Origin: Chiloscyllium plagiosum
Taxonomy: Eukaryota
Length of the DNA stretch: 29,957 nucleotides
Direction: 5' to 3'
NCBI RefSeq assembly: GCF_004010195.1
Contig: NC_057718.1
Span: forward strand, 77,330,202-77,360,158
Part shown: positions 3,837 to 29,957 of the stretch, piece by piece
How positions within the stretch are numbered: the stretch's first letter is position 1
Layout of the letters: each line of letters opens with the position of its first letter
Notes under the pieces: generated by a model
Seen by the model: only the letters and a program-made list of their open reading frames with translations
Databases searched by the model: none
Told to the model about the DNA's origin: nothing
Translations under genes and position numbers: made by a program

Positions 3837-5771
3837 TTAATTTTGAAAGCAGCATTCACTAAGCAATGGAGGATTCCGTGGACCCCACAGAAAAGAACCA
3901 AAACATTCTTTTCTATTAGAAGAGCCATCCAGATGGGGCTCACTTTTACTTTTTGCACTCTTTGGTTGCTGTAATATCTTTGGCATCTTCTGCAATTCCT
4001 GCATTATGATCCTTATGTTTATAGGGTCCCGGGAAGCCTTTAGTGTTATTTCATTAAATGGAAATGTCAGTATAAAATCACCAATGCGGTTCTTAGGCTT
4101 CTTATCAACTTCTGAAAGACTATACTGAGGAAAAGATGCTAGTTTGTATCTTTGCAAATCAACTGAAGGAAATCTTGGGCCCATTTTATGAAAATTCCCA
4201 TTAGATTGTTCATATTTTGCTCCCAGCAACATTACTCTGCCCACTGGATTCTGTGTGCGTATATAACTTCTGTTCATCTTTTCTCTCATCTGTGAAGTCA
4301 AGGTTTTCTTTGGCAGTGATCTAGTGGGCTTCACATTCTTTATGCATTTCTTAGTGTCCAAACAATAGACAGACACAGCACCTGTAGAACTATATACCTT
4401 CTTGATATTTTTCCCAGAATCTTCCCCAGTGGAACGTGGCATGTGGGAGAACTGTTTGCTGGTATAAGATGATTTGTTCTCTTCTTCTACTTTTTGGGAA
4501 TCCATCTCTTGATCTTCACTTTGGTTGTACCCATTAGATTGATTACAATTTTTACGATAGACTAACAGTGAATCATTTTGGGTACTGGACCAAATTTCTT
4601 TTGCTTTTTTAGAAGCATTGGAGTGAAGAGGCAGCACATTTCCAAATGAGTTAGTCACATAAAAGGAAGGATGGCTCCGAGAAAGTATATTATATTGCCA
4701 AGGACTTGGGTAACCACGTTGGCGCAATCTATCGACCTCTTTATAATTCAGCAGATCAATGAGGTCATATAAAAGCCCTTTCTTCACTATTACATCAGCA
4801 TTACAGTCTACCATTAGTGCTGGACTATAATTTACTTCTAAAAGCCATGGTTTTATGTTTTCATCTATTAGGATATCAAACCCAAAGAGTTCAAGACAGT
4901 TAGGAGGGGATGGAATGGAGGGAGTAATTGTTAGCAAAGTCATTGTCACAATATTGCTTATCCTCTGCCACATGAGTGGTTCATTTATATTAAGACTATG
5001 CAGAAAAGCACGGAATTGACTCATTGTCCATTTGCAACCAGAACCAACCCGTTCTTTATCCACTGTGTAGGAAGGTCCAAATCTATTGATGCTGGTGTTT
5101 GTCAAATGAGCATATACATTATCTAAAGATGCAAGACTATACTTTTCTGTCCCAAACCGCACCAGACCTTCTTGATAAATATAAACTATCAATGGACAGA
5201 AACTAGTGACACAAACATAGATTCGCAAATCAAATTTGTAACCAGAGATAAGAAGAGGATTGCTGATATATTTTTGTACGATAACAGAACAGCTGTAAGT
5301 CAAATCTTTAATATCTTGAAATATAAATATTCCTCTACCACGAGAGAGATCAACAGGCTTGCATATCCAGTATCCAAGCTTTCCGCCATTTGCCTTCTTG
5401 TCTTTTGTATATTCAGCGACAAATTTGGTGTAATCATTGGGAAGAATGAAAGCTATAGGGCTAAAGTTATATGTTGTAGAGCCATAAACCCCTGACATAC
5501 GCTTTAAATTACGAGCAAGATTGTCTTTTCGAGTTATGCCCATGATTTTTGGGTAGTGGATCAATCTTTGCCAAGGCATAATGTTTTCATACTCTGCATT
5601 GGAAAAACCCGATCGCCAATATAAATTCCAATCATTTTCATCCTGTTCTTCCTCATTAAATTCCACCCAACCACGCTCAAGGAGAACATCACGCACAATT
5701 TCAGGTGTGCCTTCATGGAGACGAAAGACCAATGACTTGGTTAGATCTTCTGATCCAGATTGACATGACAT
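3837..5771 (-). CDS. TTLL2: Probable tubulin polyglutamylase TTLL2 (TTL/ATP-grasp family), 644 aa, whole CDS in one exon
   Basis: Intact 1935-nt ORF with TTL motifs WNLYW, TRKD, YWICKP...SRGRGI, VQKYI, KFDLRIYV, HLTNTSIN, ELFGFDILID and WLLEVNYSP. Blocks I recognise from vertebrate TTLL2 include LVFR..E.TP..V..VLLERGW, PNDYTKFVAEY, GCKWT and the C-terminal GDFILTFPFN. Kozak context is accATGt, with in-frame TAG/TAA just upstream. Confidence 0.92.
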   Translation of the reverse strand: MSCQSGSEDLTKSLVFRLHEGTPEIVRDVLLERGWVEFNEEEQDENDWNLYWRSGFSNAEYENIMPWQRLIHYPKIMGITRKDNLARNLKRMSGVYGSTTYNFSPIAFILPNDYTKFVAEYTKDKKANGGKLGYWICKPVDLSRGRGIFIFQDIKDLTYSCSVIVQKYISNPLLISGYKFDLRIYVCVTSFCPLIVYIYQEGLVRFGTEKYSLASLDNVYAHLTNTSINRFGPSYTVDKERVGSGCKWTMSQFRAFLHSLNINEPLMWQRISNIVTMTLLTITPSIPSPPNCLELFGFDILIDENIKPWLLEVNYSPALMVDCNADVIVKKGLLYDLIDLLNYKEVDRLRQRGYPSPWQYNILSRSHPSFYVTNSFGNVLPLHSNASKKAKEIWSSTQNDSLLVYRKNCNQSNGYNQSEDQEMDSQKVEEENKSSYTSKQFSHMPRSTGEDSGKNIKKVYSSTGAVSVYCLDTKKCIKNVKPTRSLPKKTLTSQMREKMNRSYIRTQNPVGRVMLLGAKYEQSNGNFHKMGPRFPSVDLQRYKLASFPQYSLSEVDKKPKNRIGDFILTFPFNEITLKASRDPINIRIIMQELQKMPKILQQPKSAKSKSEPHLDGSSNRKECFGSFLWGPRNPPLLSECCFQN

Positions 5772-5794
5772 GGTTCTATGCAGTACTTACTATC

Positions 5795-9994: not shown

Positions 9995-10158
9995 CCCCTC
10001 AGTAGTGAATACTGAAACAAAGTATTAATTGAAGACCTCCCCTACCTCCAACTCCAGACACAAGTTCCCTCCAGTATCCCGAATTGGCCCTATCCTCACT
10101 CTTGAGAGTGTGGTGCTGGAAAAGCACAGCCCGTCAGACAGCATCCAAGAAGCAAGAC

Positions 10159-10194
10159 AATCGACGTTTCAGGCATAAACCCTTCATCAGGAAT
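10159..10194 (-). ncRNA. Minimal type I hammerhead ribozyme motif (core intact) in the Penelope pLTR
   Basis: Minus strand reads auuc CUGAUGA A GGGU-UUAU-GCCU GAAA CGUC gauu. It has the conserved boxes, stem II with two G-U wobbles, a palindromic ACGU stem III and a GUC cleavage triplet. Stem I is very short. Confidence 0.75.
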
Positions 10195-10767
10195 GAGGCT
10201 CATGTGCCAAGAGGGCAGATATAAAAATGGGAGGGGTGGAGCTGGGGGGAGGGGTGGGGTAAGGTAGCTGAGAGTGTAATCGGTAAACGAAGGTGGGGGT
10301 GAAAGTGATTGGTCAGAGAGGATGGTGGAGCAGATAGGTGGGCAGGAAGATGGACGGGTAGAACAGGTCAAGAGGGCAGTGCTGAGTTGGAAGGTTGGAT
10401 CTGGGATAAGATCGGGGGAAGGAGAAATGAGGAAACTGGTGAAATCCACATTGATCCCATGTGGTTGGAGGGTCCCATAGTGGAAGATGAGGTGTTCTTC
10501 CTCCAGGTGGCAGGAGATAAGGGTTTGGCAATGGAGGAGGCCTCGGACATGCATGTCCTTGGGGGAGTTAAAGTGTTCAGCCACGGGCCGGTGGGTTGTT
10601 TCTTGCATGTGTCCTGGAGACGTTCTCGGAGGCATTCTGCAAGTAGGTGTCCTGTCTCCCCAATGAGGAGGAGACCACATCGGGAGCAATCGATATAATA
10701 AATGACGTGTGTGGAAGTGGAAGTAAATCTCTGACAGATGCGGATGGCTCCTTTGGGGCCTTGGGCA

Positions 10768-10779
10768 NNNNNNNNNNNN
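10768..10779. other. Assembly gap (12 N)
   Basis: Run of N inside the Penelope-like element. Confidence 0.98.
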
Positions 10780-11796
10780 ACAAGAGTCTGCCAGAGGGAA
10801 TGGCCTTTACAGAACATATCACTGGTAGTGGGGTCTGTTTGTAGGTTGCAGAAATGGTGGATGATGATGCAATGTATAATAGGTTGGTGGAGTGGAAGGT
10901 GAGGACCAGGGCGATTCTGTCCTTTAACGGTTGGAGGGGTGGGGATCAAGGACGGGGGTGTGGGAAGTGGCTGATATGCGTTGGAGGGCACCATTGACCA
11001 TGTGGCTGGGGAATTTGCGGTCTTTGAAGGGGATGATCATCAGGCATGTTCTGTGGTGGAACTTGCCCTCCTGGGAGCAGATGCGGCGGAACTGAAGAAA
11101 TTGGGAATAAGGGATAGCGTTTTTATAGGAAGCAGGGTGGGAGGAGGTGTTGTCCAGATAGCTGTGGGAATCAGTGGGTTTGTAGATGGCTGTGTTGGGG
11201 TTTGAGATGGAGGGATCCAGGAAGGGGAGAGAGGTGTTTGAGATGGTCCAGGTGACTTTAAGGTCGGGTTGGAACTTGTTGATGAAGTTGATGACCTATT
11301 CAACCTCCTCGTGAGAGCACAAGGTGGCGCTGATACGGTCATCAATGTTGCGGAGGAAAAAATGGGGCAATGTAGTGGCAGAAGATGGACCGTTCCACAT
11401 ACCCGATGCAGAGACAGACATAGCTAGGGTCCATGCAGATGCCCATGGCTACCCCTTTGGTCTGGTGAAAGTGGGAAGATTCAAAGGAGAAATTATTGAG
11501 GATGAGGACCAGTTCAGCCAAACAAGTGAGAGTAGTGGAAGGGCACTGGTGGGGACAACAGGAGAGAAAGAAACGGAGGGCTTGGAGACCTTTGTCATAG
11601 CGGACAGATGTGTATAGGGACTGGATGTCCATGGTGAAGATGAGTCGTTGGGGGCCAGAGAAACGAAAGTCAGCCCACCTTATCCCAGATCCAACCTTTC
11701 AACTCAGCACTGCCTCTTGACCTGTCCATCTTCCTTCCCACCTATCTGCTCCATCCCCTCCCATTTTTATGTCAGTCTCCTTGGCCCACAAATCTC

Positions 11797-17940: not shown

Positions 17941-19711
17941 GAGAATACAGCAATATCGTTAGCCTACCTGAAAACAAGAGACACAAGACCATTATTCTAA
18001 ACAAATCAGACTACCTTAAAAAGGCAAATGCTCTGCTTTCAGATACTGACACTTACTCGCAAGTGGTGATAGACCTGACCCCACAATTAGAAAACAGAAC
18101 CTCATCCTTGTTAATAGGACTTCAAAGATTGGGAGAATTAAAGAGGACAGACTTCCAAAATATGAAATCAGATGGATCAAACACACCATGCTTCTACAGA
18201 TTGGCAAAAATACACAAACCTGGGGCCCTCCTCAGACCCACAGTCTCTCTACCTGGTACACCAACATACAGACTAGCCAAGGAACTTCACCAAAAACTAA
18301 AACACCTAATTGAAGATTCACGCCACTCCATTCACTCCACCCAAGAACTCCTGAATATATTCAAAACACCAAGATAGAAGAGGACGAAACAATGGTCTCC
18401 TTTGACATTACAGCTCTTTTCACATCAATTAACATCGACCTAGCCAAAGAAACACTGGCATCACTACTAGGAAAACCAATACCACAAACACCAGACAGCA
18501 CAAACCTCATCAGCAAGCCAACATCCTCAAGCCTGTGTCTGACCACCCACTTCACATTCAATAACAAAACCTATACACCAAAGCAATGGAACACCCATGG
18601 GATCTCCAAGATCAGGGCTCATAGCTAAAGCAGTATTGCAGAGAATAGAACAAAGTATCTATCCAACCCAAACTTTGGGTCCACTACATGGATGACACCT
18701 TTGTCATCACAAAACGGAACAAATTAGTGAAAACATTCAACACCATCAACAATATCCTGACAGGCATAAAATTCAAAAAGAGGAGGTGAACGACAATAGA
18801 CTCCCATTCTTAGAAATAAAACAACAAACACAGACCAAATACTTAACTTCAGAAACAATTGTCCCAATACCCACATTCGGAGCTGCAGCAAGATATTATT
18901 TCAAGGAGCTACATCACACTGCAGCATCCAAGAACTACAAAGAACAGAAGAAAAATACCTATATAATATTTTCAAGAAAAACAGGTACCCAATAAACATA
19001 ATCTGCCAATTCCTCAGAAACAAACCCAAACAGGCAGACACAACACAACCAAAAACTATAGCCACATTTCTGATATGTTTTTGATGTAATGTAATGACTT
19101 CCAGACTACTCAGACACCTTGGCATCATGATAGCCCACAAACCACCTGCCAACACACTTAAACAGTGACTAATGAACCTAAAAGATCCATTAGATACTAC
19201 CAGCAAAACTAATGTCATTTACAAAGATACCATGCAAGGACTGTGAAAAAACACTATTGGACAAACAAGCAGAATACTTGCCACCAGGACGTATGAACAC
19301 CAACTAGCCACCAAAAGACATAACCCATTATCACTAGTTTCTATACGTACAGACAAAGAAGGACACCACGTTGACTGGGACAACACACACATCCTTGGAC
19401 AAGTGAAACAAAGACATGCACGAGAATTCCTAGGAGCCTGGCAATCTAGCCAGAGCTCTATCAATAAACACATCGATTTAGACCCCATCTACCTTTCCTT
19501 GGGGAAACAAAAAAACAGAAATGACATCACACACCTTAAGAAATCAAGACCTATAAATAGAGGTGGAACATACCACCAGCACGTCACTGGAGGCTCTCAC
19601 TGATGATGTTACCTAGTCATGGTGGCAAAACATCTGAAAACAAACCTTCCAGCTCAGTGAGCTAACTTACATCCATATCATCGACCTGAGCTACAAATCT
19701 TCTCAAAAATC
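17941..19711 (+). mobile_element. Penelope-like element (Penelope/Poseidon-like), 5'-truncated and frameshifted
   Basis: RT motifs FYRLAKIHKPGALLRPTVS, MVSFDITALFTSI, GTPMGSP and YMDDTF. GIY-YIG region TNVIYK.PCKDCEKH.IGQTSRILATR..EH. The 3' pLTR ends GAGCTACAAATCTTCTCAAAA. Confidence 0.9.
19596..19640 (+). ncRNA. Degenerate hammerhead ribozyme motif in the Poseidon-like pLTR
   Basis: Reads cuca CUGAUGA U GUUACC-UAGUCAU-GGUGGC AAAA CAUC ugaa. Stems I and II can pair, but GAAA>AAAA and CGUC>CAUC predict an inactive ribozyme. Confidence 0.6.
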
Positions 19712-23669: not shown

Positions 23670-24345
23670 TTACATACAGCCTCCCATCCTTACCACCACT
23701 AGCCCATCTTGCCATGATCACCTTCCCATTGCTAACATACATTACCTTCCCTCACTTCTTGCACCCACCCAAAGCTGCTACACACTCCTTGTCCCTTTGC
23801 CTCCACACACTCCCTCATTCCCTCACTACCACACACTCCTTCCCTTTGACCCTACATACAGCCCCTCCCCTCTCCATCTCAACTCCCCTTGGTGTGCCCA
23901 CTTGCACCACCTTCCTTCAGCCCCCAATACACCCTTTCTTTTACCATGTTCCCCATGCAGCCCTCCTTCTGCATCACAGCCTCTCCCCTCTACTCCACCC
24001 ATGCCACTACCGTGCATTGCCACAGTGAAAAGCTCAACCTCACCCTTGGCTCCACTATTCTCTTCTCAACTCCTAAAGCTCCCATCTCCCCTTGCTGCCA
24101 TATACTCTCTCATCCCTTTCCCTGCGTACCCCCCTCCCTCACCTCCACCTCTCATGCCGGCATATTCATCCACTTTCCCTTCCCTCCCCTTGGTCCCTCC
24201 TCTTACCTGCGTCCCCTCACTCCCCGCGGCCCCTTCCGAATGTCCTCTCGCCCCTCACTCTCTACCTCATTGCCCTTCCTCTCCTCATTTTCTTTCCCTC
24301 GAGACTGCCCACACTCCAACCCTCTCCTCTCGAAGCTCCCCTGAC
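23670..24345. repeat. C/T-rich low-complexity tract (G/A-rich on the TTLL2 sense strand) at the start of the putative intron 1
   Basis: Strong C over G skew on the + strand, with many CCC-CCCCC runs. Confidence 0.8.
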
Positions 24346-24355
24346 TGACACTCAC

Positions 24356-24450
24356 CTCCTATTCCCGGTTCCTCTACTGCCGGTGCTGGCTGTCGATAAC
24401 TCGACCGCTCGATTCTAAACCGTCTTCAAGGTCGCTAGGCAACAGCACGC
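24356..24450 (-). other. TTLL2: Putative non-coding first exon of TTLL2 (TSS position uncertain)
   Basis: Consensus donor GAG|GTGAGT at 24355..24350, local CpG enrichment and adjacency to the promoter motif cluster. It is on the same strand as the coding exon, whose acceptor needs an upstream donor. Confidence 0.6.
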
Positions 24451-24570
24451 ATCCATGATCATCACAGTAGCCTCTGCGTCACTTCCTGCGTTCCGGCCTG
24501 TGGAGGGAGCGTTCACTCGGGGTCAAAGATCACGGAGAGGATCCAACTTGGAGTTGCCTGGGCAACCAGT
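24425..24570. promoter_or_regulatory. CpG-containing promoter with two RFX X-boxes, ETS sites, a CRE half-site and a DR1 element
   Basis: GTCGCTAGGCAAC 24431-24443, GTTGCCTGGGCAAC 24553-24566, TGCGTCA 24475-24481 overlapping ACTTCCTG 24481-24488, TTCCGG 24491-24496, and GGGTCA-A-AGATCA 24520-24532. Confidence 0.75.
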
Positions 24571-24854
24571 CTCAGTCTTATTGTCTATCCATTAACACGT
24601 GGGCTAGGATTTCCAACTAGGAAGCGATCATTTTAAAAACTGAAGTTTTTTTTTATTTCAAAAATATACTTTATTCATAAATACTTTGATCTATACAACT
24701 GGACATGTCATACATATGTACACATTCCATTTCTTTGCATATCGAAACAGAGTAATCATTCTTATTTACAGGTTGGTGCGATTACATTAAGCTGAGGCGC
24801 CAGCAGAGCCCAAATGACTGCGTGGGCCCTCTGTTCTTCTTAGGCAGGCAGATG

Positions 24855-27800
24855 TTACACGGTGGTCTTTCCCCACCGCGCCTTGGCGGCAGCTGCCCCA
24901 AGCTTCAGTGCATCCCTCAACACGTAGTTCTGGACCTTGGAATGTGCCAGTCTGCAACACTCAGTTGGGGTCAACTCCTTCAGCTGGAAGATCAACAGGT
25001 TTCGGACCACCCAGAGAGCGTCCTTCACCGAGTTGATGATCCTCCAGGCACAGTTGATGTTCGTCTCGGTGTGCATCCCGGGGAACAGACCGTAGAGCAC
25101 GGAGTCCCGCATCACGGCGCTGCTCGGGATGAACCTCGATAATCACCACTGCATTCCTCTCCAGACTTCCTCTGCATAGGCACATTCCAGAAGGAGGTGT
25201 GTGACAGTCTCGTCCCCCCCGCAGCCGCTTCGAGGGCAGCGTGCGGTGCGGCTGAGAGTCCGGGCGTGCATAAAGGATCTCACAGGCAGAGCCCTTCTCA
25301 CCACCAGCCAAGCCATGTCTTGGTGCTTGTGGAAAGTTCTGGCGATGAGGCATTCTGCCAAATGGCTTTGACAGTCTGCTCAGGAAACCGCTTGACAGGA
25401 TCCGCCCTCTCCTTTTCCCGAAGGGTCTCAAGGACACTATGTGCTGACCACTTCCTGATGGACTTGTGGTCAAAGGTGTTTTTCTTCATAAACTTCTCCA
25501 CGAAGGACAGGTGAAACGGAACGGTCCAACTACTCGGAGCGTTCCGCGGCAGCGAGGCCAGGCCCATCCTTCGCAACACCGGGGACAGGTAGAACCTCAG
25601 TACGTAGTGACACTTGGTGTTTACGTACCGGGGATCCACACACAGCTTGATGCAGCCACACACAAAGGTGGCCATCAGGGTGAGGGTGGCATTGGGCATG
25701 TTTTTTTCCCCCACTGCACCGGTCTTTGTACATTATGTCTCTTCGGACCCGGTCCATCTTTAATCTCCACATGAAGTGGAAGATGGCCTGGGTGACTGCG
25801 GCAGCACAGGTTCTGGGGATAGGCCAGACCTGTGCCACGTATAACAATACTGAGAGTACCTCACACCTGATGACCAGGTTTTTACCCGCGATGGAGAGTG
25901 ACCGTTGTTCCCATCTGCCTAGTTTCTGTCTCACCTTCCTGATCCGCTCCTCCCAGGTCTTGGCGCACACCCCAGCCCCCCCCCGAACCAAATACCCAGC
26001 ACCTTCAGGTGGTCAGTCCTGACGGTGAAGGGGATAGAGGATTGCTCGGCCCAGTTCCCGAAGAGCATGGCTTCGCTCTTGCCTCGGTTTACCTTGGCCT
26101 CCGAGGCACATTCGAACTGGTCACAGATGCACACGAGTTTGTGCACGGACAGCGGATCCGAGCAGAAAACGGCGACATAATCCATGTACAGGGAGGCCTT
26201 AACATGCAGGCCCCCGCTGCCAGGAATAGTCACCCTTCTCAGGCTCGCATCCTTCCTGATGGACTCGGCAAATGGTTCTATACAGCACACAAACAAGGCA
26301 GGAGAGAGAGGGCAGCCCTGCCTGACTCCAGATCTGACTGGGAAGTAATCTGATTCCCACCCATTGATTGAGACTGCACTGACAATGTTGGTGTAGAGCA
26401 GTCTGATCCAATTAGCGATTCCCTCCCCGAAGCCCTTTTTGGAGAGGACATCCCTCATATATGTATGCGATATCAGTCAAAAGCTTTCTCCTGGTCCAGG
26501 CTGATGAGGCAGGTGTCCACCCCCCTGTCCTGCACTAGGCAATCGTATCTCTGAGGAGTGCGAGACTCTCAGCGATCTTCCTGCCCGGTACAGCACAGGT
26601 TTGGTCAGGGTGAATCACCGATCCCAGAGCAGACCTGACCCGGTTGGCGATGACCTTTGACAAGATTATGTAGTCTGTGTATAACAGTGAGATCGGTCTC
26701 CAATTTCTAATTTCCTCCTTCTCCCCCTTCTGCTTGTAGATGAGGGTGATGATGCCTTTCCTCATGGATTCACTCATGGTACCTGCCCGAAGCATACTGA
26801 CATACACCTCCAGCTGGTCCTGGCCAATCAAGTCCCAAAGACCGGAATAGATCTCGACCGGTAAGCCGTCGCTCCCGGGAGTTTTATTCTTTTCGAAGGA
26901 CTCGAGGGCCTTGGTCAGCTCATCCAGAGATAGCGGCTCGTCCAGCCTCTCTCATGTTCCGTCGTCTAGGACCTCCGTGATAGAGGACAGGAACAACTGG
27001 GAGGCCGCGCTGTCGGTTGGCTTCGAGTCATACAAACTGGCATAGAAGGATTTACTGATCCTCATGATGTCAGCCTTAGATGACGTTATCGAGCCATCTT
27101 CTTCCTTCAGGCTGCTGAGCACGGAGCTCTCTTTGTGCACCTTCTGGAAGAAGAAACGTGAGCACTTCTCGTCCTGCTCCACTGAGCGGACTCTGGACCG
27201 GAAGATTATCTTGGAGGCCTCTGAGGCAAAGAGCGAGGCTTGCTGGCCCTTCACCTGGAGGTCCTCCGTGACATCGACCCCCAACGTCTGCAGCAGGAGC
27301 AGGTTCTGCATACTTTCCTGGAGTTGGGACAGTTTTCCCCGCCTCTCTCGCTTCCTGAACACCTTTGAGGATGAAGAACCTCTTGATGTTCCCTTTTATT
27401 GTTTCCCACCAGTCCGCTAGGTGACAGTCGGCCAGCAGGAGGCAGTGGTCAGAGAAGAACACCGGCTTGACGTCGGTGGATCTGACCGAGAGCGTTCGGG
27501 ACACAAACAGGTAATCTATCCTTGAGCGGATAGACCCGTCTGCCCGTGACCAGGTGTATCTACGCTGCGCTCCGTCTGCAGGGGTGCTGAAGACATCATG
27601 CAGCTTGGCATCTTTGACCGTGTCCATCAGGGCTGTGGACGTGGCGTCCAGTTTACTGTCCCCCCCGCCGGATCGTCCATCTGCATCAATGATACAGTTG
27701 AAGTCTCCGGCCAGAATGACCGGCCTGGACGTAGCCAGCAACAGTGGAAGTTGTTGCAGGACGGCCAACCGTTCACTCTTACTCGCTGGGGCGTACATGT

Positions 27801-28118
27801 TGATTAGTCTCATGGGAGCGTTTCTGTATGTAACATCAGCGACGAGGAGGCGCCCACCTACCACCTTCTTAACCTCGGAGATGGTGAAGTTGCCTCCTCG
27901 CAACAGAATACCCAGGCCTGAGGAGCGGTTATCGTTGCCCCCCGACCACCCATGGGCCCACAAGCTCGACCATCTCCTGTATCTGCTGAGGTGCAGTATC
28001 CCACACTCCTGCAGAAACAGGACATCGGCTTTCACGTTGGCCAAGAAGGCCAGTGTTGAAACACATCGCGAGCAGATTTTATGCTGCGCACATTAATAGT
28101 TGCAATTTTTAACCCCAT
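24855..28118 (-). pseudogene. Tx1 ORF2 (APE endonuclease, reverse transcriptase, zinc finger), multiply frameshifted
   Basis: Motifs MGLKIATINVR, LQE, AGDFN, SRIDY, FSDH, NWRPISLL, GVRQGCPLSPALF and CPRSGCGGDETVTHLLLEC. The catalytic YMDD is mutated to YMDY. The ATG lies 4 nt after the ORF1 stop (TAA-CAAA-ATG). Confidence 0.9.
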
Positions 28119-28122
28119 TTTG

Positions 28123-29404
28123 TTAACAAGTTGTAAGGTTACCCATGTCCGATTGTCGCTGATCCTGCCCCTCTGGGGTAGCTGTCTGCATCCCCATGCA
28201 GAACACGAACTGCTGGATCCTCGCAGGGCTGAGCTAGCTGTCCAGCTCCTCACTTGGCCCATTTGCCCGCTTTGATGTCATCGGGCCGCGGCCAGGGTCC
28301 ACGTTGTCTGTCAGAGGGTCGCTGCTCCCAGTGACCTGGAGCTGTGTGGCGGTGAGGCCCTCTGCTTTCACCTGGTGGGGGATGGTAGTTTCCCATTTCC
28401 TCAGGAGGTTCGTCCCTTGGTTGGCAGTTGCTGCTCTCCTTTCTCCTCGCAGCGCTCTGCCTCTTCTTTTGGTGACGACTCTCCTTACGCCCGTCCTCAC
28501 CCTCCGAAGAGCTGTCCATGTCTTCCCCATGCAGCTGCCTTTCCCCCTTTTTCTGGTAGGTCTTGGTGGCCGGGTGGGTTTTCCTCCTCTTGTTTTGCAC
28601 CACGGTCCATTCCTCTGCCTCCTTCTTTCCGTTCTCCACTTCCTCCTCCTCCGCCTGTCCTGTCGGAGCTTCGCTCGGCAGCTGTCCCTCTCCGGTAGCT
28701 GTCATCTGCTCTGCTCCGGCCTGTCCTTCATTTTGCGTGCCCCCAGACACCATTCCCTTGCCTGTTTGTGGTGCCTTGCCATCCTTTAGTGGCCCACCTC
28801 CGGCCATCTGCGCGTAGGTGGCGGCCCCTCGTCTTGGGCAGGCCCTGTACACGTGGCCCGCCTCCCCACACAGATTGCAGTTCTTTTCCTCCTTGCATTC
28901 TTTGGTCGGGTGGCCCTCCTTCTTGCAGTTCCGACAGATCGTGACCTTGCAGTCCGCCGCCATGTGGCCTGACCTCCCACAGGTTCGGCACACTTTCAGC
29001 TGCCCTGCATAAGTCATGTACCTTTTGCTCCCTCCGATAGCAATGCTGGAGGGTGGGTGGAGGATATTCCCGCTGGCATCAACCCTCAGGGTTACCTTGA
29101 CCTGTCGTTTGCTGGTCCAGATCCCGAAAGGGTCAACCACATCGGTGCTTTGTCCCTCAACCTGCACATATCTTCCCAGGAACGTCAGGACATCGGTTGC
29201 TGGCACGTAGGGGTTGTACATGTGGACCGTAACAACCCGACTCCTCTGTGCAGGAAGCACACACAAGGGGACCGCCGACAAGATGGAGAACAGCAGCTCC
29301 CCTTCCTTTTCCTTGAAGACCTTCAGGAGCTGCTCGCATTGCTTCACGCTCCTGAACGTGACGTCAAAGTAGCCTGCCCCAGGGAAATCCTGCAGGCAGT
29401 ACAC
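28123..29404 (-). pseudogene. Tx1 ORF1 (gag-like RNA-binding protein with three CCHC zinc knuckles), with a frameshift near 28355 and a premature TAG at 28236..28234
   Basis: CRTCGRSGHMAADC, CRNCKKEGHPTKEC and CNLCGEAGHVYRAC follow an RRM-like region (FDVTF...GIWTSKRQV). The reconstructed C-terminus is ...ELDS*LSPARIQQFV...NLTTC*. Confidence 0.88.
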
Positions 29405-29957
29405 TTTGTTTTTATTTCAAAATATACTTTATTCATAGAAATAAATCTTTGGTACTTGTACAATTTGTCATGTCGTTCATAGGTATATACATTGCATGTC
29501 TTAACATTACAAAGAACAGATTGAATTACTCGAATTTACAGTTATCCTATTTACAGTTCCCTTTATTAACCATCCAGTCTCTTATTATTTAGCTGTGGCT
29601 TCAGCAGAACCCACCTACTGAGTGGGTGCCCTGTTATACTATAGCAAATGAACCTTTTTTAATTCCAGTTTATGGGGTTACCGTTGTCCATTTGACTGTC
29701 CTGTCTCTGGGGAAGCTATCTGCATCAGCATGGTGAGCACGAACTGCTGGACCCTCGCTGGGCTGAGGTAGCTATCCAGGCTCTCACTGTGGTCATTTAC
29801 CTGCTCTGGAGTCATTGAGCCAAGGCAAGGGTCCGCACCGTCCAGTTCTGTGTCTGACAATGGGACTGTCAGAGGATCGCAGCTCTCAGTTGTCTGAGTT
29901 TTGGGGCAGTGGGTACCCCTTGGGTCTCACTGGGTGGAGGGTGGACTTCAGGGGGTC
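29405..29957 (-). mobile_element. 3' end of a related Tx1-type element in which ORF1 is followed directly by the 3' UTR and A-tail (candidate ORF1-only, HAL1-like); runs off the window
   Basis: The frame ending at 29678 (HPPPSETQG...DPLT...SLDSYLSPARVQQFVLTMLMQIASPE) is homologous to the ORF1 C-terminus at 28123-28390. Bases 29405..29677 are homologous to the Tx1 3' UTR at 24646-24854, with AATAAA at 29433..29428. Confidence 0.75.

Follow-up and report, generated by a model that had tools for sequence, protein, structure and literature searches.

Several lineages of LINEs have given rise to elements that lack ORF2 and keep ORF1. The mammalian HAL1 ('half-L1') elements have several independent origins, according to the available text of three papers (PMC5753468, PMC3627910 and PMC8535693, citing Bao and Jurka 2010), and the long upkeep of ORF1 in guinea-pig HAL1 is described in excerpts of one of them as implying that ORF1p acting in cis and ORF2p acting in trans are both needed (PMC3627910). 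Excerpts of another study name HAL1, HeT-A and Ag-Sponge, from the L1, Jockey and CR1 clades, as the non-autonomous LINEs retaining ORF1, and suggest that their proteins form mixed multimers with the autonomous partner's proteins (PMC5786205); its main text mentions Tx1 and sharks 0 times. ORF2 was lost repeatedly in Drosophila telomeric elements, as set out in part of PMC13534243. Within the Tx1 clade, members that prefer other mobile elements as targets are known, and Tx1-Mar has been reported to mobilise non-autonomous partners in trans (PMC4494074, available text). The literature that we searched, with supplements, Repbase and Dfam outside the search, yielded no Tx1-derived or shark ORF1-only family in the text available.

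The locus described here lies at the end of the window, by which we mean the whole stretch of 29,957 nucleotides of Chiloscyllium plagiosum DNA that was analysed. On the minus strand of 29405..29957, the end of a Tx1-type ORF1 is joined to a Tx1-type 3' UTR and an A-tail. We refer to the family of this copy as family B and to the neighbouring Tx1-type LINE as element A (Table 1). The visible part of B comprises 553 nt at the 3' end, its 5' end and full ORF1 lying beyond the window. We favour the reading that this stretch is the 3' end of a dead copy of a multi-copy non-autonomous family, which probably derives from a Tx1-type LINE by a near-exact loss of ORF2 and is ORF1-only and HAL1-like.

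Table 1. Positions of element A and of the family B copy in the window.
Feature	Position	Strand	Details and basis
Element A, ORF1	28123..29404	-	Without the first ~50 codons; frameshifted at ~28355-28362; two ZCCHC3-type RNA-binding domains and CCHC knuckles (Pfam PF23057, PF23058, PF00098)
Element A, broken ORF2	24855..28118	-	APE endonuclease and reverse transcriptase (PF03372, PF14529, PF00078), in separate frames
Element A, 3' UTR and A-tail	24646..24854	-	Sequence; alignment to the B UTR
Family B, ORF1 3' end	29678..29957	-	One-base frameshift near 29895; extends past the window edge
Family B, junction in place of ORF2	29645..29677	-	~33 nt, no ATG; breakpoint ~29644-29655; partly alignable to the boundary between ORF1 end and ORF2 start of element A; spanned by X3 records 21 and 22
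Family B, Tx1-type 3' UTR	29405..29644	-	Hairpin at ~29627-29609; AATAAA at 29433-29428; short A-tail ending at 29405

An earlier note, made by eye from the letters, had likened the frame ending at 29678 to the C-terminus of the neighbour's ORF1, and pairwise alignment bears out the resemblance. From 29944 to ~29655, 216 of 279 aligned columns are identical to the ORF1 end of element A (77%), with a score of 208 as compared with a maximum of 39 in 200 shuffles. Likewise, the B UTR (29644-29405) matches the post-ORF2 UTR of element A (24843-24646) in 155 of 196 columns (79%), scoring 130 against a shuffle maximum of 45; the ordered blocks that the note had quoted as common to the two UTRs were found. 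The last ~35 nt of B are nearly identical to those of element A. The ORF1 stop occupies 29680-29678 and the A-tail begins 261 nt further on, close to the ~270 nt first estimated.

We detected no match to the ORF2 body within 29405-29957, where the best score of 35 stays below the shuffle maximum of 42 and blastn concurs, in agreement with the reported absence of a ~3.3-kb ORF2. About 33 nt separate the ORF1 stop from the beginning of UTR homology, and ORF2, which measures 3.26 kb in element A, is missing almost exactly. A hairpin is predicted at the start of the UTR in both B and A (z -0.52 and +0.37 versus shuffles). It contains a plausible compensatory pair, but the folding of the four stretches evaluated is no better than that of shuffled sequences (z -0.52 to +1.06), and the hairpin was dropped as a recognition signal; Rfam returned 0 matches within the window.

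The copy in the window is itself dead. The frame ending at 29678, which had been described as open, is closed by two TGA stops (29929-29927 and 29950-29948); the HPPP motif belongs to another frame, stopped at 29871-29869. Related proteins read the HPPP part and the C-terminal part in one frame, and tblastn placed the break in B at ~29893-29908. Contigs assembled from public sequencing runs carry one extra base behind 29896, accounting for a depth of 254 of 562 in run X1, 13 of 13 in X3 and 293 of 318 in X16. Because contigs of three runs have this base, the frameshift belongs to the window copy, and an intact ORF1 in this copy is ruled out by the one-base shift near 29895. The copy departs from the majority letters of the contigs at ~12 of 553 places (~2%), as counted among 40 of 64 difference rows listed.

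We then asked how widely the ORF2-less junction occurs. Parts of the stretch are present in 20 of 24 listed rows, which represent 9 studies and 4 organisms, and the contigs of 4 of the 24 listed runs were aligned to 29250-29957 at 85% likeness. The window copy occurs nowhere exactly, the best share of the stretch's words in any listed run being 0.55. In X1, a DNA run by the tool's guess, 897 contigs aligned and were spread across all likeness bands (157, 273, 323 and 144 contigs). The two junction bins reach summed depths of 2363 and 2176, and position 29662 has 2045; the medians are 3434 for seven UTR bins and 2482 for eleven ORF1 bins, and depth does not drop through the junction. Of the eight X1 contigs listed, seven have a depth of 4-10; the eighth (90.5) was left out of the baseline as itself multi-copy. 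Divided by this baseline, depth amounts to ~60 where it is lowest and to 200-300 over the junction, values that are readable only as 'tens to hundreds', because the summed depth of contigs is inflated by their overlaps and does not measure copy number. In the same run, a depth of 11241 out of 12190 goes without the single non-A letter of B's A-tail.

Only 0.01 of the aligned X1 material continues into unlike sequence. Among the loose ends listed, a single one falls at the junction: one contig whose 12 letters are a variant of the junction, without the ORF2 start codon. The X1 listing comprises 8 contigs, none of which crosses the junction, and 928 further pieces and 109 weaker loose ends lie outside it; a minority of the X1 copies may bear ORF2. 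In X3, from a second organism, two contigs span the breakpoint at 29644-29655: record 21 (29610-29681) with 1 mismatch and record 22 (29619-29693) with 7 mismatches and 1 gap. At 29662, 2 contigs of X1 and 1 of X3 have the same one-base variant, indicating that at least two junction variants are common to two organisms. X16, from a third organism and RNA by the tool's guess, covers both sides and leaves the junction unbridged, with a hole at 29653-29671. The contigs of X3 and X16 run 213 and 150 nt past the window end, respectively. No RNA run was listed among those containing the stretch, and 0 reads aligned from the single-cell RNA run X23, of which ~6% was sampled, too little to test expression.

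Since many copies, from at least two organisms, carry the junction, we interpret the ORF2-less join as the mark of a family rather than of a one-off deletion or a misassembly. The earlier note had argued for such a family, and the continuous X1 depth, the two bridging X3 contigs and the variant found in both runs support it. Of its proposal of a non-autonomous family on a shark Tx1 LINE, the ORF1-only part is the likeliest reading, and the openness of the visible ORF1 fails. The outcomes that it had named as fatal were a misassembly and a single-copy junction; contigs of independent runs cross the join, and many X1 contigs and two different X3 contigs contain it.

The assignment to Tx1 draws on domain architecture and not on a reverse-transcriptase tree. 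Relatives of the B ORF1 carry PF23057, PF23058 and PF00098 and not the mammalian L1 ORF1 domain, and this type of ORF1 has been linked to Tx1 (PMC5203782, available text). The Tx1 features found in element A and in related proteins are the RNA-binding domains and CCHC knuckles of ORF1, the APE and reverse transcriptase of ORF2, and the A-tail, so that B and A would both belong to this clade. A sequence search of the PDB gave 13 matches, all to the zinc knuckles and uninformative.

Used as a query for longer proteins, the tail of B retrieved 2 of 63 candidates, neither of them fused to ORF2, which is weak evidence. The clusters of these two comprise five Chiloscyllium punctatum gene models of B's ORF1 subfamily, located on three contigs and available with no DNA context. 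The B tail is 79-84% identical to the four complete C. punctatum tails (P0001, P0002, P0003 and P0005), 62-64% identical to the family of element A and 48-51% identical to a third subfamily (P0006 and P0030). The ORF1 of element A is in turn 85-89% identical to the C. plagiosum proteins P0012, P0036 and P0037. In all four complete C. punctatum tails, the ORF1 stop lies 15 residues before that of the window copy. Such drift of the stop would be expected once no ORF2 follows, the stop of element A being 5 nt ahead of the ORF2 ATG.

The host 'uncharacterized' genes annotated in Chiloscyllium include members of at least three Tx1-type ORF1 subfamilies (models P0001-P0006, P0030, P0012, P0036 and P0037), with four models on one contig. 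A 93-residue piece of a shark-type ORF1 is also filed as a Proteus mirabilis protein (P0031, MBB6707171.1) and is probably host contamination of a bacterial assembly. Searching metagenome, prokaryote-genome and viral collections for related DNA by protein confirmed 0 of 124, 90, 47 and 48 pattern matches, and the terminal motif of B had 0 matches in each of these kinds of collection.

P0002, used as a query against 50% cluster representatives, gave 8 matches, five of which are whale-shark gene models. The ORF1 part of these models is most similar to the B subfamily in five of five cases, and ORF2 pieces are also present in all five. Because they join such an ORF1 to ORF2 pieces, B's ORF1 lineage must once have had an ORF2 of its own and is older than the loss of ORF2; it probably split from the lineage of element A before that loss. 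The divergence from element A, which the earlier note had taken as a mark of independent evolution, may predate the loss. We accordingly set aside element A as the direct parent, the whale-shark models joining B's ORF1 lineage to ORF2; element A is a cousin of B and not a demonstrated parent or helper. Element A is a dead copy with several breaks, and its ORF2 appears to miss a short stretch after the endonuclease, at ~27400 on the minus strand, where the whale-shark models have extra residues.

The tail of B abuts the ORF1 of element A ~50 codons into the gene, at 29404/29405, where X3 and X16 show the normal continuation of ORF1. Either B inserted into a complete element or a 5'-truncated A inserted into the A-tail of B; we looked in the window for a non-A duplication flanking element A and found none. 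Records 4 and 5 among the eight X1 contigs listed (window 29296-29455) repeat the same tail-to-ORF1 join; they reach 51 and 31 nt into the tail side and have 20 and 16 other letters. As they are ~12% unlike the window, compared with the ~2% divergence of the window copy, we infer that they do not represent the window locus. The repeated join may mark a site preferred for insertion inside the Tx1 ORF1 or a point where truncation recurs, or else a composite may have been copied. In addition, 40 X1 contigs have unlike flanks (agreement 0.38) at 29409, after a Tx1-type tail, at a terminal motif that is common to A's family and not specific to B. An ORF1-only Tx1 parasite present in several shark species, with its ORF1 under selection, that lands repeatedly in one ORF1 site of complete Tx1 elements and so disables its own helper type could be imagined, and we regard this scenario as doubtful.

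A CpG-rich stretch at 24300-24645 (up to 9 CpG per 100 nt) starts within ~100 nt of the A-tail of element A and by eye resembles a first exon with a splice donor on the minus strand; the stack of A and B is located directly upstream of a probable promoter. Elsewhere in the window, a 649-codon open frame at 3837-5786 on the minus strand contains a tubulin-tyrosine-ligase domain (PF03133, E 3.5e-76) and probably represents one large exon of a host gene in the TTLL family. The degraded frames at 10096-11698 (minus strand) and 17943-19603 (plus strand) are presumably pieces of a Penelope-type reverse transcriptase and of GIY-YIG.

LINE insertion needs ORF2p, and a family devoid of ORF2 must therefore borrow it. 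We propose that master copies of B would be transcribed from their own 5' UTR and would make an ORF1p whose RNA-binding domains and zinc knuckles coat their own RNA in cis. The endonuclease and reverse transcriptase may be borrowed from an autonomous Tx1 family via the conserved ~35 nt at the 3' end together with the A-tail, and new copies would insert by target-primed reverse transcription.

Whether ORF1 contributes to this cycle is the point on which a different account turns, namely that B is a multi-copy, internally deleted derivative that owes its spread in trans to its 3' end, much as a long SINE or bipartite non-autonomous LINE would, with ORF1 as a neutrally decaying passenger. It would fit the frameshift of the window copy, the partial C. 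punctatum models (five of 217-327 residues versus 490 for a full ORF1), the earlier stop common to the four complete tails, and the lack of codon bias in the visible ORF1 tail, where 3 of 17 listed differences fall at third positions and no constraint is visible. Yet at the point where the window copy breaks, most matching contigs of the three runs read on in frame, and P0004 is open over 327 codons, with its second RNA-binding domain and knuckles intact and identical to those of the full-length P0030 at 124 of 130 positions. The tail is moreover a low-complexity region that diverges fast between other families too: the domains of P0004 are 83-95% identical to those of the other two subfamilies, compared with 53-57% for the tail. 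Of the 14 differences listed for the first RNA-binding domain, 13 are at third positions (p 6e-6), in contigs that may mix several families. We consider the passenger account unlikely, if worth keeping in mind.

The remaining accounts dispense with trans mobilisation of an ORF1-only family altogether. Amplification of a single old deletion copy as DNA, in a tandem array or by segmental duplication, or an ORF1 domesticated as a host gene family like L1TD1, without further retrotransposition, would explain why P0001 and P0005, as well as P0002 and P0003, are on common contigs and annotated as genes, and why the join at 29404/29405 recurs in two X1 contigs; mammals do possess such an ORF1-derived host gene, L1TD1 (PMC4161310, available text). 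We find this very unlikely, since the models are spread over three contigs, the X1 contigs populate every likeness band (157/273/323/144), the repeated joins are ~12% off a window that itself departs at only ~12 listed places in 553, and the window copy has both a frameshift and a terminal A-tail. No likelier is a mostly autonomous family in which copies without ORF2 make up a minor or recent deletion subfamily, or in which the deletion is private to the window copy, an idea prompted by the ORF2 pieces in five of five whale-shark models with such an ORF1 tail and by the partial listing of loose ends and pieces: an ORF2-bearing majority should produce strong loose ends on both sides, of which there are none among those listed, whereas depth in X1 is continuous, two X3 contigs bridge the junction and its variant is seen in both organisms. 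An assembly artefact joining the ORF1 end to the 3' UTR is scarcely credible. The window copy is exact in no listed run (best word share 0.55), but this low share fits ~2-3% of private changes (0.65 would be expected from the 12 listed places alone), and contigs of independent runs, such as X3 records 21 and 22, cross the join. The multi-copy ORF1-only family hence remains our preferred interpretation of B.

Several described systems resemble B without coinciding with it. The Tx1 clade, represented by Tx1L in Tx1D, Keno, and Tx1-Mar with SINEU, is the probable parent clade of B (PMC4494074, available text); the partners of Tx1-Mar described there are non-coding SINEs, whereas B retains ORF1 sequence, and the flanks after Tx1-type tails vary here. 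HeT-A and the other ORF1-only elements of Drosophila telomeres have, like B, a gag-like ORF1 with zinc knuckles and rely on the ORF2 of relatives (PMC13534243 and PMC5786205, in part), but they belong to the Jockey clade and are specialised for telomeres, whereas B lies beside a LINE, just upstream of CpG-rich sequence, and shows no hint of belonging to a telomeric array. The Anopheles element Ag-Sponge is an internally deleted non-autonomous LINE that kept ORF1 (PMC5786205, in part), but it is a CR1-clade element of a mosquito.

The copies of such a family, devoid of a reverse transcriptase, may escape repeat filters and enter annotations as host genes, as the five C. punctatum 'uncharacterized protein' models suggest. 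Family B also offers a natural test of whether a cis-encoded ORF1p is needed for mobilisation in trans. HAL1 is the system to which it compares most directly: both consist of ORF1, a 3' UTR and an A-tail without ORF2, both are multi-copy and both need ORF2p in trans (HAL1 as described in the available text of the papers above). The parent of B is of the Tx1 type, with a ZCCHC3-like ORF1, in contrast to the mammalian L1 ORF1 of HAL1, and the shark origin is independent. Long maintenance of ORF1 is reported, in the excerpts available, for guinea-pig HAL1, whereas B is represented by a frameshifted 553-nt end. Judged from its architecture, B would work like HAL1 while standing outside HAL1 in the strict sense, which has the mammalian L1 type of ORF1. 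Family B would support the loss of ORF2 with retention of ORF1 as a general route to LINE parasites, which is not a new principle, and would add the Tx1 clade and the cartilaginous fishes to the short list, so far formed by L1, Jockey and CR1, of groups with ORF1-retaining non-autonomous LINEs.
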